A DNA stretch of 64,000 nucleotides from Escherichia coli (GTDB taxonomy: Bacteria; Pseudomonadota; Gammaproteobacteria; Enterobacterales; Enterobacteriaceae). The position numbers and the translations under genes are program-made. Positions 3,770-54,552 of the stretch are shown one piece after another. Where the stretch lies: the NCBI RefSeq assembly GCF_045037415.1, contig NZ_CP173438.1; one strand, 5' to 3'. The stretch's first letter is position 1. Every line of letters begins with the position of its first letter. The notes under the pieces were generated by a model, which worked only from the letters and a program-made list of their open reading frames with translations, did no database searches and was not told the DNA's origin.

Positions 3770-3950
3770 TTGCGTATAGATTGAGCAAATCCCAAATAGC
3801 CGTTAAAATTATATGCATTATCACGCCGACAGGTGCATTACACGATGTCACGGTAACGCCTGTACGGTAAACTATGCGGGTTTACGGTCAGTACCCACAT
3901 TAACTGTGTGGTCTGGTCTCAATTTATTGACGAAGAGGATTAAGTATCTC

Positions 3951-4268
3951 ATGGCTGAATGGAGCGGCGAATATATCAGCCCATACGCTGAGCACGGCAA
4001 GAAGAGTGAACAAGTCAAAAAGATTACGGTTTCCATTCCTCTTAAGGTGTTAAAAATCCTCACCGATGAACGCACGCGTCGTCAGGTGAACAACCTGCGT
4101 CACGCTACCAACAGCGAGCTGCTGTGCGAAGCGTTTCTGCATGCCTTTACCGGGCAACCTTTGCCGGATGATGCCGATCTGCGTAAAGAGCGCAGCGACG
4201 AAATTCCGGAGGCGGCAAAAGAGATCATGCGTGAGATGGGGATTAACCCGGAGACGTGGGAATACTAA
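3951..4268 (+). CDS. metJ: methionine repressor MetJ
   Basis: ORF track starts at 3813; the internal ATG at 3951 ([18 protein letters not shown]) gives the 105-aa MetJ. Confidence 0.93.
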
Positions 4269-48709: not shown

Positions 48710-49558
48710 ATGAATAAAAACGAATCAATTTCTTACACCGAAATGCAAAAATTTTTTGCCAGAGAAATTAAGGAAGTAGGCGGTAGGCCCATCACTTCTA
48801 AGAATTTAGAGTTAAGTCTGCTACCCATTCACGCCAGGGAAAACCTTTCTGCGCCAGAAATGCCGTGGTATACCGAAGTTAATGATATCTATATGGAGTT
48901 CAGACGCTCACCATTCTGGATGGTTGCCGGTTATGTATTCCTGGGATTTATGCTTTCACTACTTTCCATCTCGATATTATCTATTGTTGCATTCTCATTT
49001 TATGAGATGGGCTTTAATAGTGACTTGTTATTTCTGTATCTACTTGCATTTGTGCTTGGCTGTTTTATATTACCTGGCGCTGCAAAAATTGCTTTTTTCA
49101 CGCCACATTATCTTCCTATAAGATTTAACAGAAAAACACAAAAAATTTATGTTTCAGATTTAATTATTGAAGGCAATATCTTCTTTGGAAAAATAAAACT
49201 CACTTTTCATGAATATGACTGGAAAGATGTTGAAGGTTGGGAGGTGAGTAGACATTTCAGTAAAAGTATGCCTTACAATGGATTACATCTGGTAGTTAAT
49301 AGAGAAAATGATATAAATGCACTGCGACAGACACGCGTTTATACAACCCGTGCACCGTGGAGTGCACAAGAAATGGCAAGACAAAAGAACTATATCCCCC
49401 AAATATGGCTTTATTGCCATAATTATATGGCTTATAAAACTGTGTCTGGTGCAAAGAACAAACCACAACCATTTATTTTTTTAAGAAACAATTGGCTATT
49501 TAAATGGCCAAAAGAAATGGATAAACGTTCCAGAAGCTCAAAGATACTGTCTGAATAA
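48710..49558 (+). CDS. hypothetical membrane protein (two adjacent TM helices), unknown family
   Basis: 282-aa ORF in low-GC DNA (first 200 nt of the ORF about 38% GC by hand count); TM hairpin FWMVAGYVFLGFMLSLLSISILSIVAFSF / LLFLYLLAFVLGCFILPGAAKIAFF; purine-rich SD-like stretch upstream; no family recognised. Confidence 0.6.
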   Translation: MNKNESISYTEMQKFFAREIKEVGGRPITSKNLELSLLPIHARENLSAPEMPWYTEVNDIYMEFRRSPFWMVAGYVFLGFMLSLLSISILSIVAFSFYEMGFNSDLLFLYLLAFVLGCFILPGAAKIAFFTPHYLPIRFNRKTQKIYVSDLIIEGNIFFGKIKLTFHEYDWKDVEGWEVSRHFSKSMPYNGLHLVVNRENDINALRQTRVYTTRAPWSAQEMARQKNYIPQIWLYCHNYMAYKTVSGAKNKPQPFIFLRNNWLFKWPKEMDKRSRSSKILSE

Positions 49559-49582
49559 GCATAATAATGAAGGATTTCGACT

Positions 49583-50323
49583 ATGATTAACAAACTTACT
49601 CTTCCTTGGCCGGTATTATTTTTAGAATTTTTTGTGCGAGAAGTTGCCTTTAAGGGTAAGGGAATTGTTCGTTCTACATTACCAGCAGATGCCCATTTTT
49701 ATACCGGTGGGTCAAAAGCCCTGCGTTATCACCTACAACCAGGAAACCAATGGCCAAACTATATATGGCATGATGATATAGGTGATATTGTACCGTTTCC
49801 TCTACCCTCACTTCCGCTTACATTTACCGCTAACCGACCCACATTTAATTCCAGAGAATTAGCGGATAAATGGATGAAGGATAATATTCATACCGCTGTC
49901 ATCATGGCGGGGGAATTTCTGTCTGCTAATGAATGGATTCGCCGCAAAAACCAGCTTAAAACTAGTGTACACCCTGCGTCAGTTGCTTCTTTCGCACCCT
50001 ATGGCTTTAACATTAACCAGTGTGATGACGATGGCAATCTTTGGACTAATTTCCCACGTCCCCACATCAAATTAAAAATCGCACCAGGAAAAACAGCTTG
50101 TTTTCTCTGCCGCCGGGAAGAGCTTTTATTTGGTTATGATGAAGCACATAATCACTACCAGCCGAATCTTAATCTGGTTTTATTTGTGAAAAATCATGGG
50201 TTGCATAAGGATGTTTACCTAAAATCTCATGACGATAAAAGTGAATACGATAGCAGAATATTATGTAACGAAAAATTTACCACTTATGATTTCCGTAAAA
50301 ACCGGTCCAGATACAGCTTTTGA
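49583..50323 (+). CDS. hypothetical soluble protein, unknown family
   Basis: 246-aa ORF starting 24 nt after the upstream gene with a GAAGGA Shine-Dalgarno; AT-rich codon usage; no motif recognised. Confidence 0.6.
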   Translation: MINKLTLPWPVLFLEFFVREVAFKGKGIVRSTLPADAHFYTGGSKALRYHLQPGNQWPNYIWHDDIGDIVPFPLPSLPLTFTANRPTFNSRELADKWMKDNIHTAVIMAGEFLSANEWIRRKNQLKTSVHPASVASFAPYGFNINQCDDDGNLWTNFPRPHIKLKIAPGKTACFLCRREELLFGYDEAHNHYQPNLNLVLFVKNHGLHKDVYLKSHDDKSEYDSRILCNEKFTTYDFRKNRSRYSF

Positions 50324-50507: not shown

Positions 50508-50726
50508 TCATTCCTCATGCCACTTACCCTGTTCTTCAACACCAACTACCTCACCCCTTTGCCTGTCACTTTTTGCCTTACGCACCGGAAATTGCTGACG
50601 CTCCAGATATTGCTCTACCGCTTCGCGTAAAATTGCAGAGCGCGAAACCTTACGCCAGCCCCGAAGCTTGTTCAGCCGTTTAATTGCCTCTTCTGATAAA
50701 TGAAGAAAAACCGTATTCATCGCCAT
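50508..50726 (-). CDS. ribbon-helix-helix (CopG-like) DNA-binding protein, yiiE-like
   Basis: MAMNTVFLHLSEEAIKRLNKLRGWRKVSRSAILREAVEQYL; 72 aa from the ATG at 50726 (alternatives 50720, 50753). Confidence 0.75.
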   Translation of the reverse strand: MAMNTVFLHLSEEAIKRLNKLRGWRKVSRSAILREAVEQYLERQQFPVRKAKSDRQRGEVVGVEEQGKWHEE

Positions 50727-50819
50727 TGCCACCACCTTACATATATTACTCATTAATGTATGTGCGAAAATTACGCCGAAAAATCATTTAAAAAAAGCGG
50801 ATTTTTGCATGTCGTTTTG

Positions 50820-51122: not shown

Positions 51123-51401
51123 TTAGTAGTAGTAAATTTGTGGATAACAGTCCGGGAACCAGACGATTCCTTCCGGATCATCCCCCTGCATTACCCGATG
51201 ACATTGGCGTCGATCATCTGCGCGACGGCGAAGCGTAGTATAGAGCCGCTTCCATTCATGATCGCCCGGTGTACTGTAGTTTACCCAACAATCCATTGAA
51301 GGGTGACGCCATTTACCTGTAAGTGTTGGGATCCCTGAATGCTTATGCGGCTTCGCTTTACCATTACGATCCCTATCTTTACGCGTATTAAACGTGGACA
51401 T
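51123..51401 (-). CDS. hypothetical small basic Cys/His-rich protein
   Basis: 92-aa ORF; no recognisable family; may be a fragment. Confidence 0.3.
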   Translation of the reverse strand: MSTFNTRKDRDRNGKAKPHKHSGIPTLTGKWRHPSMDCWVNYSTPGDHEWKRLYTTLRRRADDRRQCHRVMQGDDPEGIVWFPDCYPQIYYY

Positions 51402-51462
51402 TTTTAGTCTCCTGTTAAGAGTTCTAAAAATGTGCTTCCTTAAAATAGTTCATCATTTTCCC

Positions 51463-51675
51463 TTAATTCGCATAGCGTGCTTTTGCACGAATTTCCGATA
51501 CGCGGGGACCATTATGATAGCGTCGATGCCCACACATCCAACAAGAACAAATACAGGGAGTACGAAAGCAAATACCTGATGCTTTTTTGCTTCCATCGCC
51601 TGCAGTGCGATAACGACAGCGGATTTTTTTTAATCGCACCATATGATGGCGACGTTCAGCACGATTACGGGTCAT
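51463..51675 (-). CDS. hypothetical small basic Cys-rich protein (possible zinc ribbon)
   Basis: 70-aa ORF with CxC...CxxC spacing (CICSCWMCGH); no recognisable family. Confidence 0.3.
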   Translation of the reverse strand: MTRNRAERRHHMVRLKKIRCRYRTAGDGSKKASGICFRTPCICSCWMCGHRRYHNGPRVSEIRAKARYAN

Positions 51676-51759
51676 AGCAAAACTCCTGAACAGGCGGCAC
51701 TATGCCGCTTTCATAGGAGTTCTGAATGCTGGTGCTTTCTGTATGGCATAACCATGCCT

Positions 51760-52050
51760 CTAACGGTTAAGTGCTTGCAGCACATGTTGCGGATCATTGG
51801 CAATCGCTCGCAGCAAAGCCTTTGCAGGCCCGGTCGGTGAACGTCGCCCCTGCTCCCAGTTACGCAACGTGTCTACGCTTACGGAAATAAGATCGGCAAA
51901 TTTAGATTGTGACAACCCTGAAGCGCGGCGTATTTCTTTGATTTTCATAGCATCAACTTCAAAAGTCCGTGAAGGCTGTCGCGTTCCTTCAATAATTTCA
52001 TTCATCTGGGCCATGCTGTGAGTCAACCGCTCAAAAAGTGCCTTATCCAT
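51760..52050 (-). CDS. HTH (XRE-type) antitoxin, HigA-like
   Basis: 96 aa; helix-turn-helix IRRASGLSQSKFADLISVSVDTLRNWEQGRR; ATG directly abuts the upstream toxin stop (TAA-ATG). Confidence 0.75.
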   Translation of the reverse strand: MDKALFERLTHSMAQMNEIIEGTRQPSRTFEVDAMKIKEIRRASGLSQSKFADLISVSVDTLRNWEQGRRSPTGPAKALLRAIANDPQHVLQALNR

Positions 52051-52362
52051 TTACCACCTCGTATTTAACAACCGGAGCATTGCTTTTTCCTGGGGAGACA
52101 GATCATCTTTAATACCCTTACGATAAATAAGCAGTAATCTGATCTCATAATGTTTAACCTGATGAAAGTAAATAACCCTGACACCAGCACGTTTCCCCTT
52201 TCCTCCTGAGACCCATCGAACCTTTCTTAACCCACCAGTTTCAGGTATTACCTCACCATAGTCAGGATTCAAGGCCAGGAAAAACTGAAAACGACTGAAT
52301 TCATCGTCGTTCAGCAGTTTTTGAACATCTTCAGTAAAAATTTCCGTTTCGATGAAGAGCAT
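52051..52362 (-). CDS. RelE/ParE-superfamily toxin, HigB-like (toxin-first arrangement)
   Basis: 103 aa, MLFIETEIFTEDVQKLLNDDEF...GGLRKVRW...GVRVIYFH...IRLLLIYRKG; size, basic patches and coupling to a downstream HTH partner. Confidence 0.7.
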   Translation of the reverse strand: MLFIETEIFTEDVQKLLNDDEFSRFQFFLALNPDYGEVIPETGGLRKVRWVSGGKGKRAGVRVIYFHQVKHYEIRLLLIYRKGIKDDLSPQEKAMLRLLNTRW

Positions 52363-52482
52363 AATTATACGCCATTGGCTTAGAGCAACAATCCTTTTTG
52401 TACGTCATTGACGTACCATTGAAACCACTAGCTTACTGATAGTGCTCCAGCAAAACCACGTCTCTGCCGGGTTTGTCTTTAC

Positions 52483-52578: not shown

Positions 52579-53499
52579 ATGAGTTCTACTATGGCACTGG
52601 AAAAAGGAATTGCAGAGTTAGTCGAAGAGTTTATCGCTGCGGGTCGCCCCTCATCGCGCCAACAAAGTATTACGCAGCGCAGAGAGGGCTATATCGCCAG
52701 CGCTGTCCTTGCGGGTGAGACAGAAACGCGGGTAGATATTCAGACTATCGAACTTGAAGGGATGACCTTACGAATAGTGTCACCGCTGAATGCCCCGACA
52801 TTACTCCCGACGATAATTTATTACTACGGTGGCTGTTTTGTTAGCGGCGGGTTCGCAACTCACGACAACCAGCTGCGCCAGTTAGCCTATTACGGGCAAT
52901 GTCGGGTTATTGCCGTCCAGTATCGGCTGGCACCGGAACATACTTTCCCCGCCGCCCATGATGATGCACAACGAGGTGCAGAATTAGTCCGGCAACACGC
53001 CGAACGACTCGGCGTTGATAAACAACGAATAACTCTTGCCGGTGACAGTGCGGGAGGGCATCTGGCGCTGGTAACTGCTTTGCGATTGAAGCGTGCTGGC
53101 GAGTGGCAACCAGCACAACTCATCTTAATTTATCCTATGCTTGATGCGACTGCGCATTTCGAAAGCTACATACGCAATGGTCACGATTACATCATCACAC
53201 GCGACACTTTACTGAGCGGCTTTGAGATGTACCTGCCAGGCATTGAACGCAGGCATCCTGAAGCCAGCCCTATTTGGCGCAATGATTTCAATGGCTTGCC
53301 ACCTGTACATATCATTACCGCTGAATACGACCCACTTTGCGATGAAGGTGAAGCGTTGTATCACCGCATGACAGGGCAAGGAGTGCAATGCACCTGCCAA
53401 CGCTACCTTGGCGTTATCCACGGATTTTTTCAGTTAGGTGGTATCAGTGAGGCTGCGCGATCGGCGTTACGGGATGTTGCCTGGAGAGCGGGAAGGTAA
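52579..53499 (+). CDS. alpha/beta-hydrolase-fold esterase/lipase
   Basis: oxyanion-hole region YYYGGCF and nucleophile elbow GDSAGG; ORF track starts at a GTG (52516) inside the conserved motif, ATG at 52579 or 52591 preferred. Confidence 0.7.
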   Translation: MSSTMALEKGIAELVEEFIAAGRPSSRQQSITQRREGYIASAVLAGETETRVDIQTIELEGMTLRIVSPLNAPTLLPTIIYYYGGCFVSGGFATHDNQLRQLAYYGQCRVIAVQYRLAPEHTFPAAHDDAQRGAELVRQHAERLGVDKQRITLAGDSAGGHLALVTALRLKRAGEWQPAQLILIYPMLDATAHFESYIRNGHDYIITRDTLLSGFEMYLPGIERRHPEASPIWRNDFNGLPPVHIITAEYDPLCDEGEALYHRMTGQGVQCTCQRYLGVIHGFFQLGGISEAARSALRDVAWRAGR

Positions 53500-53562: not shown

Positions 53563-54552
53563 CTACTCTTCTTCGTTCCCGCCCTCTTCATACGGGCCAA
53601 ATGGCTTCGCGGGCAGAACGATATACGTGCCTTCAAACACTGCACCCGGCGTCTCGTCGCCAAAGATTTCTACTTGCATCTGCACCCGTGCTTTTCGTCC
53701 GCGCGCCAGACGGTCGAGATCGCCACTTAAGGCACCAAGGTCGGCTACCGCATGGGGTTTTCCGCTAATCGGCTTGCTGTAGCGGATATGCGCATCCGCC
53801 AGAATAATCGTTCCGCCGAGGTGGCGTTCGCGCAGCATCAGCCAGATAAGCCCCCAACCGGTGAGCGTAGCCAGCGAGAATAAACTCCCGGCAAACAGCG
53901 TGTGATGCGGATTCTGATTGCCGGTTTCCGGCATGGTGGTGATAAATTTTTGCCCGGTATATTGCTGAATGCGCACACCCATTTTTTCGCTTAACGGGAT
54001 ATGTTCATACCACGCTTGCTGGAGCTGGGCGCACCAGTCGCCGCGATGAAGAATATCATCCAGAGTGGCGACGGGTTTAATCATCAGAAAATGGCGAATC
54101 GGCGTGGTGGTTGGCGTGGTGATTTCACCCTGATTAACAAACCCCAGCTTGGCGAAAAACTCCACCGCGTCTTCACGGGCGCTACAGGTCACGCGCTTAA
54201 CGCCTTCCTGACGTGCCACCGACTCCAGGGTCATCGCCATCAGCGTGCCTAACCCTTTGTCCTGCACGTCGGGATGAACGGCCATAAAGCGAATGGACGC
54301 TTCATTGTCGGCATTAATATACAGTCGGCCTACCGCTACCAGATTACCCTGCTCGTCGACGACCATCTGGTGATGCGCCATCGCATCCCACGCGTCGCGT
54401 TCCGAACCTTTTGGTTGATGCAGGGGCTTACGCAACATTTCCCAGCGAAACTGATAGTAACGCTCTAATTCTTCTTCTGTTTGTGGAACCCGAAGGTGAT
54501 ACATAGCGATACTCTCTCTTGTTTCCCGTGACAACCCTGGAAGCTGGCTCAT
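53563..54552 (-). CDS. yiiD: GNAT acetyltransferase / hotdog-fold fusion protein YiiD (FabY)
   Basis: 329 aa; N-terminal GNAT region and C-terminal thioesterase-like region. Confidence 0.88.

Follow-up and report, generated by a model that had tools for sequence, protein, structure and literature searches.

A predicted HigBA2-type toxin-antitoxin pair and an adjoining two-gene cassette between fabY and yiiE in Escherichia coli

The HigBA2-type pair and its closest relatives

Among described toxin-antitoxin (TA) systems, the closest to the locus considered here are HigB2/HigA2 from the superintegron of Vibrio cholerae (PDB 5JA8, 5JAA, 8A0X, 9TV9) and HigBA2 from the Acinetobacter baumannii plasmid pAB120, both of which function as two-gene systems (PMC5416850, PMC5906591). 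In the V. cholerae toxin VcHigB2, alanine substitution of R51, R64, Y82, and K84 cuts activity 170- to 3000-fold (PMC5416850), and the operator of the antitoxin VcHigA2, TGTACGC-N5-GCGTACA, has been footprinted and crystallized (PMC11006873). The A. baumannii toxin is a toxic ribonuclease neutralized by its antitoxin, which also represses its own promoter, and the operon has the reverse gene order (PMC5906591). In E. coli itself, a pair named “TA27 relE-1/yiaG-1” (NRG857_19405/19410), consisting of a 312-nt toxin gene and a 291-nt antitoxin gene between yiiD and fdhE, was catalogued in adherent-invasive E. coli NRG857c and uropathogenic E. coli CFT073 and is absent from K-12 and HS; no identifiable domain was found in the toxin (PMC7232551). 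Here, we describe the same locus in a 64,000-nt stretch of an E. coli genome (RefSeq assembly GCF_045037415.1, contig NZ_CP173438.1; hereafter, the window), where the TA pair is followed on the same strand by two small open reading frames (ORFs), ORF-A and ORF-B.

The TA27 catalogue is a prior description of this module; in it, the pair carries no HigBA2 assignment, and the operator, catalytic residues, and small ORFs downstream go unmentioned (PMC7232551). Experimental work on the TA27 pair was not found in the literature, and searches for the RefSeq protein accessions or for NadS together with HigB returned no papers. Our analysis indicates that two independent units very probably adjoin in the variable hotspot between fabY (yiiD) and yiiE. 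Unit 1 (52416..51760) appears to be a type II TA operon of the V. cholerae HigBA2 type, and Unit 2 (51724..51123) is a distinct cassette of two genes derived from mobile elements. The two units comprise the following features:

52400..52416, no strand assigned: predicted HigA2 operator palindrome, 38 bp upstream of the toxin ATG
52051..52362, minus strand: higB2-like toxin gene, 103 aa; RelE superfamily, predicted ribosome-dependent mRNA endonuclease
51760..52050, minus strand: higA2/nadS antitoxin gene, 96 aa; N-terminal extension and C-terminal XRE-type helix-turn-helix (HTH)
51678..51724, minus strand: structured 5′ leader of ORF-A, seen as an inverted repeat and an RNA fold
51463..51675, minus strand: ORF-A, 70 aa, pI 11.1; T5.055/phrog_4499 family
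51123..51401, minus strand: ORF-B, 92 aa, pI 9.5; broad unannotated family

All four minus-strand ORFs were found where the initial annotation had placed them, and so was the zero-spacer coupling of the first two genes, the toxin TAA (52053-52051) abutting the antitoxin ATG (52050-48).

By homology, the TA pair appears to be a member of the V. cholerae HigB2/HigA2 family. For the toxin, the decisive result is a phmmer comparison with PDB, which retrieved five sequences of V. cholerae HigB-2 with E-values from 1e-19 to 1.6e-18 (including 5ja8, 5ja9, 8a0x, and 9tv9). The alignment is ungapped over residues 2–99 and places the catalytic R51, R64, Y82, and K84 of VcHigB2 opposite R49, R62, Y80, and K82 of the toxin, all four being kept; the toxin also matches phrog_5869 (E 4e-27). 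The antitoxin matches phrog_2104 over its full length (E 8e-26), Pfam HTH_3 (E 3e-9), and, within the C-terminal HTH region (residues 31–89), HigA-2 in PDB (E 1.8e-8). It reaches the cutoff of the NCBIfam model NadS, NF041265 (60.7 bits vs. 60), and its RefSeq name is nadS. The phrog_2104 and NadS profiles both take in its N-terminal extension of 30–35 residues. Together with the upstream position of the toxin gene, these matches bear out the proposal of a toxin-first RelE/HigB-like module whose antitoxin combines an N-terminal extension with a C-terminal XRE-type HTH. The profile searches proposed with it gave a divided answer: NadS and HTH_3 were recovered and RelE only weakly, and the HigB-like PF05015 and the HigA model TIGR02607 did not match.

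Several observations weigh against the assignment. The Pfam RelE model PF06296 matches the toxin weakly and over residues 43–101 only (i-Evalue 0.0062, 17.2 bits), and “RelE (weak)” is likewise found among the precomputed matches of the Klebsiella ortholog. None of the NCBIfam toxin models matches the 103-aa protein, which RefSeq mostly labels “hypothetical”. Residues 1–30 of the antitoxin have no pairwise similarity to VcHigA2 (residues 1–37 of the latter), and therefore a disordered neutralizing region is an assumption. As for other families, the models for the canonical HigB/HigA of Proteus Rts1, PF05015 and TIGR02607, are absent from the Pfam and NCBIfam matches of the pair. MqsRA was rejected as well, the MqsA-type model TIGR03830 scoring 39.1 bits vs. 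a cutoff of 61.8 on the HTH part only in an antitoxin with zero cysteines. On these grounds, the module is assigned to the HigBA2 type rather than to classical HigBA or MqsRA.

With V. cholerae HigB2/HigA2, the E. coli pair has in common the toxin-first order, the catalytic residues, the HTH, and the GTACG core and N7 spacing of the upstream palindrome. It is nevertheless diverged: the toxin alignment has E 1e-19 across 98 residues, and that of the antitoxin HTH E 1.8e-8 across 59. The bases on either side of the palindrome core differ as well, and the E. coli pair forms a chromosomal islet beside fabY, whereas the V. cholerae system is an integron cassette. The A. baumannii system has a toxin of the same family and the reverse gene order; it is plasmid-borne and experimentally validated, whereas the E. 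coli module is chromosomal, single-copy, and known from sequence only.

By analogy with these relatives, the toxin would be a RelE-fold endonuclease that cuts mRNA on the ribosome, as homology and the four conserved catalytic residues suggest, and the antitoxin would neutralize it through the N-terminal extension. From the structures and footprint of VcHigA2, the antitoxin dimer would repress its own operon, the XRE-type HTH binding a GTACG-N7-CGTAC palindrome. A perfect palindrome of this form, GTACGTCA-t-TGACGTAC, lies at 52400-52416 and is the predicted HigA2 operator: its core half-site and spacing are identical to those of the VcHigA2 operator, and in the Klebsiella ortholog both half-sites are changed symmetrically to ATACG...CGTAT. 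VcHigA2 contacts bases through four residues, two of which, N72 and R77, are kept in the antitoxin as N64 and R69. Less favorable to this prediction are the two remaining contacts, which differ (R68 to D60 and E71 to R63), and a sigma-70 consensus scan upstream of the toxin, which gave no convincing promoter. Two kept and two changed contacts fit a related, non-identical operator. A TATAAT immediately before the toxin ATG was rejected as a promoter, being too close to serve that start.

The antitoxin gene has a Shine–Dalgarno (SD) sequence, GAGGTGG, 5 nt before its ATG and within the 3′ end of the toxin gene; ahead of the toxin start no recognizable SD was seen. Read directly from the sequence, the toxin-first order, the missing toxin SD, and a strong antitoxin SD with abutting stop and start codons would favor an excess of antitoxin.

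The pair is present in 2635 of the 5426 complete E. coli genomes (approximately 49%), once per genome and at ≥95% identity. A further 2790 of these genomes have no match, which, together with the stated lack of the pair in K-12 and HS (PMC7232551), agrees with the expectation that K-12 has no TA module at this position. Klebsiella and Pseudocitrobacter have higBA2 orthologs at the corresponding site. Toxin homologs were found on 881 plasmids, 307 of them from Acinetobacter and some annotated as HigB-2, and in a few phage records. The TA pair thus looks like an ordinary, already catalogued member of the HigBA2 family.

The ORF-A/ORF-B cassette

Several genomic arrangements indicate that ORF-A and ORF-B are not part of the TA module and appear instead to constitute an independently exchangeable cassette. 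In a metagenomic E. coli contig (L003), the toxin and antitoxin are 98% and 100% identical to those of the window, ORF-A and ORF-B are 74% and 66% identical, and a sharp recombination breakpoint lies between higA2 and ORF-A. In other Escherichia (L002, L004, L019), the locus has ORF-A and ORF-B and, in place of higBA2 and the neighboring esterase gene, three unannotated opposite-strand genes (421, 175, and 178 aa) between fabY and ORF-A (L002, 3281-5665). For this three-gene set, PADLOC gave no match and NCBIfam only a partial, far-below-cutoff match to the 421-aa protein. The ORF-A/ORF-B pair also occurs without higBA2 in islands of Salmonella, Edwardsiella, Kosakonia, Citrobacter, and Mixta and in IMG/VR contigs.

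The TA pair, for its part, occurs without ORF-A/ORF-B in about half of the carrier E. coli genomes and on hundreds of plasmids. The window allele of ORF-A/ORF-B is present in 1269 complete genomes at ≥95% identity, and approximately 1184 further complete genomes match only the first ~50 nt of ORF-A, a 5′ stub. In many E. coli that keep higBA2, among them those of the O111 type, a 394-bp deletion (window 51228-51621) takes most of ORF-A and ORF-B, joining ORF-A codons 1–18 to the 3′ end of ORF-B and sparing the leader hairpin (L017 2036-2640, E. coli O111:NM).

This separability in both directions, the breakpoint, and the two-gene functioning of HigBA2 in V. cholerae and A. baumannii (PMC5416850, PMC5906591) make it very improbable that the four genes form one operon in which the small proteins act as TA accessories (extra regulators, a chaperone-like factor, or a second toxin). 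What speaks for such an operon is that all four genes share a strand and are separated by short gaps, that no strong terminator is predicted between higA2 and ORF-A, and that Escherichia and Klebsiella have the gene order higB2-higA2-A-B in common, with higB2-higA2-A found in Pseudocitrobacter. In addition, an ORF-A homolog of Xenorhabdus lies just downstream of a gene that we read by eye as a Doc-family toxin.

Both small ORFs appear to be real genes under purifying selection. We compared the window with a second E. coli allele, Klebsiella, Salmonella, Edwardsiella, and an unassigned contig. Between diverged copies, the proportion of nonsynonymous differences (pN, 0.15–0.46) is far under the saturated proportion of synonymous differences (pS, 0.63–0.93) for both ORFs. 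Where measurable, the ratio of nonsynonymous to synonymous rates (dN/dS) in comparisons with the window allele is 0.12–0.25 for ORF-A and 0.10–0.26 for ORF-B, and it rises to 0.42 in more distant ORF-B pairs. Each ORF has an AGGAG sequence 7 nt before its ATG. The idea that they are paralogs or halves of a split gene was discarded: hhalign found nothing, the reading frames differ, and each has its own SD.

The initial annotation had described these ORFs as basic and rich in Cys and His, and as either real zinc-ribbon proteins or gene remnants. Both are indeed basic, with six Cys and four His in the 70 residues of ORF-A and three Cys and five His in ORF-B; a conserved, metal-binding-like Cys/His motif was recovered in ORF-A only, the cysteines of ORF-B not being conserved among its homologs. 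Of the two alternatives, that of real genes held, and that of remnants is ruled out for the window allele because pN is far below saturated pS. The conservation proposed as a check was likewise found, with 283 homologs of ORF-A and 112 clusters of ORF-B in addition to the purifying selection.

Two points run counter to this reading. RefSeq leaves ORF-A unannotated in strain SK1144 (ORF-B is the hypothetical protein WP_001296612.1), and rare variants of ORF-A are frameshifted at its A8 run (51608-51621, codons 16–18) or A6 run (51583-51592, codons ~30–32; P0008, P0012-14, P0024, P0028-29). The latter are few beside the 304-member intact cluster and could be sequencing errors or slippage variants. 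The same points, together with the deletion of the cassette to a remnant in roughly half of the higBA2-positive E. coli and the AT-rich flank towards yiiE (35.5% GC), could be taken to mean that both ORFs are what is left of an old mobile element in decay and no longer serve any function in E. coli. We regard this as highly unlikely, given the low dN/dS with synonymous sites saturated between alleles and genera, the intact strong SDs, the motifs kept invariant in families extending to other proteobacterial orders and to T5-like phages, and the 1269 complete genomes carrying the window allele.

One further element was observed at the start of ORF-B:

51398..51433, minus strand: perfect 10-nt inverted repeat ACAUUUUUAG...CUAAAAAUGU, which takes in the ORF-B start codon

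This repeat is weak and AU-rich (fold z-score −2.06, with 11 of 200 shuffles folding at least as well), and its significance is uncertain.

The ORF-A protein matches phrog_4499 (E 1.4e-13, residues 3–67) and 442 phage records, mostly from T5-like phages, at about 50% identity. A profile search of the protein database yielded the 283 homologs, and a scan of one genome per species yielded 44 loci in Enterobacterales, Vibrionaceae, Chromatiales, Nitrosomonadales, Rhodocyclales, Burkholderiales, Desulfobacterales, and Acidobacteriota. Among 46 diverse members, R9, R19, G34, C43, C45, and C48 never vary, and H10, H11, and C41 hardly do. The conserved motifs are RRHH and CxCSCWMCG, i.e., a metal-ligand-like arrangement of two His and CxCxCxxC, the spacing of which differs from the canonical pair of CxxC knuckles. 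Conservation of H10/H11 and C41/C43/C45/C48 points to a metal site made up of His and Cys; the ORF-A protein is very basic and probably carries a metal-binding motif. No Pfam, NCBIfam, or PADLOC model matches ORF-A. The AlphaFold2 model is helical and of moderate confidence (pLDDT 68), and Foldseek gave no match in PDB below E 3 for the models of either ORF-A or ORF-B.

The phage relative, gene T5.055 of phage T5, is about 50% identical to ORF-A over 86% of the length, including RRHH and CxCSCWMCG. Unlike ORF-A of the window, the T5.055 protein has an extra acidic C-terminal tail, and the gene has neither an adjoining ORF-B homolog nor a strong leader hairpin (z −1.2). In T5-like phages, the ORF-A homolog sits among many small uncharacterized genes in the tRNA-rich part of the genome, which we take to be the early region. 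Literature searches for T5.055 and T5.054 found no papers. T5.054, the gene beside T5.055, was considered as an ORF-B homolog and rejected (hhalign probability 4% and 1%). In a Sulfuritalea metagenome-assembled genome, a 105-aa ORF just upstream of the ORF-A homolog resembles T5.054 (BLASTP E 5e-4 in a single comparison; L059 982-1299, L010 3434-3781), which hints that T5.054-like ORFs are a second, different partner family for ORF-A.

ORF-B belongs to a family of 112 representative clusters at E ≤ 1e-3 (in a search of cluster representatives) with the C-terminal motif P.WW...TRPRR...G.DPDG..W...KP..YYW. ORF-B and 96 family members have no Pfam, NCBIfam, or PADLOC match, and ORF-B has no PHROG match. 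A zinc-ribbon or zinc-finger feature was not recovered in ORF-B, since its cysteines are not conserved. Its AlphaFold2 model is also of moderate quality (pLDDT 77, with one confident long helix).

ORF-A and ORF-B are paired in certain lineages only: of the 44 species loci, 7 have ORF-B after ORF-A and 37 have ORF-A without it. ORF-B-family genes are also found without ORF-A. Paired genes occur in islands with AlpA and YfjJ-type genes, or beside P4-like primase, dnd, type I restriction-modification, and other TA genes, as well as in all six IMG/VR contigs found. Separately, a 76-aa ORF-B-family gene was observed 118 bp upstream of an IS3-family transposase gene in at least two different chromosomal contexts (L062-L064, 4001-5862), and it may travel with the insertion sequence.

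The structured leader of ORF-A and possible roles

In the window, the predicted fold of the ORF-A leader contains an inner GC hairpin, GCGGCA-UAG-UGCCGC, within an outer stem formed by AACUCCU and the ORF-A SD, AGGAGUU. The fold has −38.1 kcal/mol and a z-score of −3.7, and none of 200 shuffles folds as well. The hairpin moves with ORF-A and not with higBA2, being present at loci that lack the latter. Other genera have the same architecture in a different sequence, with a GC-rich inner hairpin enclosed by an anti-SD:SD outer stem, the compensatory stems including UCCUCA:UGAGGA in Edwardsiella and ACUCCC:GGGAGU in Pluralibacter. Overall, 31 non-redundant ORF-A leaders have a mean z-score of −2.5 vs. 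−0.4 for 55 control leaders from the same loci (Mann–Whitney p 3e-7). A single consensus structure for this leader class was sought with MAFFT and RNAalifold and could not be adopted; only the inner hairpin was recovered, since the outer anti-SD:SD stems sit in different registers between genera. A search of Rfam with the leader and the whole locus returned no family.

A second, sequence-conserved class of ORF-A leaders was also observed, with the inner hairpin GGCGGUC...CGAAGG...GRCYGCC, and only directly upstream of ORF-A homologs. It occurs in Pantoea, Erwinia, Rouxiella, Vibrio, Photobacterium, Xenorhabdus, Pectobacterium, Citrobacter, Klebsiella indica, and Chromatiales (L024, L025, L027, L028, L030, L033, L038, and L040 at ~3925-4000; L015 5931-6006; also L047, L021, L037, L039, L026, L031, L032, L035, L041, and L042). 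A covariance model was built from this class (Pantoea, Vibrio, Xenorhabdus, Chromatiales, and others). In 453 kb, it matches only the ORF-A leader position (19 of 19 matches). In the matches, 91% of cells are paired, and nine pairs have compensatory changes, well above shuffled and slid controls.

Given that the leader buries the SD in the window allele, translation of ORF-A is probably held low or conditional, and the hairpin would be a translational control element for ORF-A; it may also provide the higBA2 transcript with its 3′ end. Three results limit this interpretation. Across the ORF-A family, SD burial is not significantly above background by a crude measure of SD pairing (p 0.08); the alignment behind the covariance pair counts was itself fitted to the model; and the covariance model of the second class does not match the window leader.

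Type I toxin mRNAs such as hok, tisB, and zorO have SD-sequestering leaders, and the ORF-A leader resembles them in that a stable 5′ hairpin pairs with the SD of a small ORF on mobile elements. Type I toxins, however, are hydrophobic membrane peptides, whereas ORF-A is basic, Cys/His-rich, and soluble-looking; also unlike type I systems, no antisense RNA was identified for ORF-A, and the leader matches no Rfam family.

This resemblance is one of the arguments for viewing ORF-A and ORF-B as a new small conflict module (TA-like, abortive-infection, or anti-defense), in which ORF-A would be a harmful effector with tightly controlled translation and ORF-B its partner. Also consistent with such a module are the compactness and mobility of the cassette among islands, P4/CP4-57-like elements, and sites beside dnd, type I restriction-modification, and TA genes; the presence of ORF-A homologs in short-ORF arrays of Vibrio, which we read by eye as integron cassettes; and their position among small uncharacterized genes in the tRNA-rich part of T5-like phages. 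We nevertheless consider this rather unlikely, as ORF-A occurs without ORF-B in 37 of the 44 loci and ORF-B-family genes occur without ORF-A, PADLOC finds no match, and many E. coli lineages have lost the pair with nothing obvious in its place. Moreover, there is no acidic, antitoxin-like partner, since both proteins are basic.

Our best guess is that ORF-A and ORF-B would be small nucleic-acid-binding proteins serving the mobile elements that carry them. As an unlikely reading, we also put forward that ORF-A, with or without ORF-B, might be a small effector in conflicts between mobile elements, phages, and hosts, its translation gated by a previously undescribed, covarying, SD-hiding 5′ leader RNA. 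Such an effector would be common to T5-like phages, P4/CP4-57-like islands, and apparent integron cassettes of Vibrio.

Setting of the locus and significance

The locus is flanked by fabY (yiiD, 53563-54552) and a yiiE-like ribbon-helix-helix (RHH) gene (50508-50753), and its sequence is 100% identical in strains such as SK1144. Between the TA pair and fabY lies one more gene, considered here for context only:

52591..53499, plus strand: alpha/beta-hydrolase, a hormone-sensitive-lipase-like esterase, divergent from higBA2

The esterase has a LipP1-like NCBIfam match (E 6e-71, under the curated cutoff), with which the RefSeq annotation agrees. It is co-inherited with higBA2, and Klebsiella has the same neighbor.

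Applied to the neighboring hotspot genes, PADLOC and NCBIfam were uninformative. On the plus strand of the window at 48710-50323, between the yiiE-like RHH gene and a yiiF-like RHH gene near fdhE, we observed genes for a DUF6708 protein (282 aa) and a 246-aa hypothetical protein; PADLOC and NCBIfam searches with these two proteins gave no match, and the insertion looks like a further variable islet of the same hotspot. The yiiE-like RHH protein (minus strand) has the motif LLREAVEQYLERQ in common with the RHH antitoxin of an RHH+PIN (VapBC-like) pair found at the equivalent position in Klebsiella and Pseudocitrobacter (L005 6490-7106; L020 4397-5049). Because of this common motif, yiiE and yiiF of E. 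coli may be orphan VapB-like antitoxins that have lost their PIN toxin. In some strains whose match is otherwise 100% (e.g., NZ_CP124405.1), the annotation places a transposase of the ISL3-family element ISEc53 and a ClbS/DfsB-family gene inside the matched span; this span falls into two pieces and exceeds the query by ~1.9 kb.

The TA pair adds little that is new, belonging as it apparently does to a structurally well-studied family and being already listed for pathogenic strains. What is new for it are the HigBA2 assignment, the conserved catalytic residues, the predicted operator, and the population figures. The small ORFs are the more useful outcome: they appear to be selected genes of two unannotated families, partly missed by annotation pipelines. 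Both families are found in enterobacterial islands, ORF-A also in T5-like phages, and the leader of ORF-A has no Rfam entry. The ORF-A/ORF-B cassette is the sole part of the locus with discovery potential, and that potential is modest.

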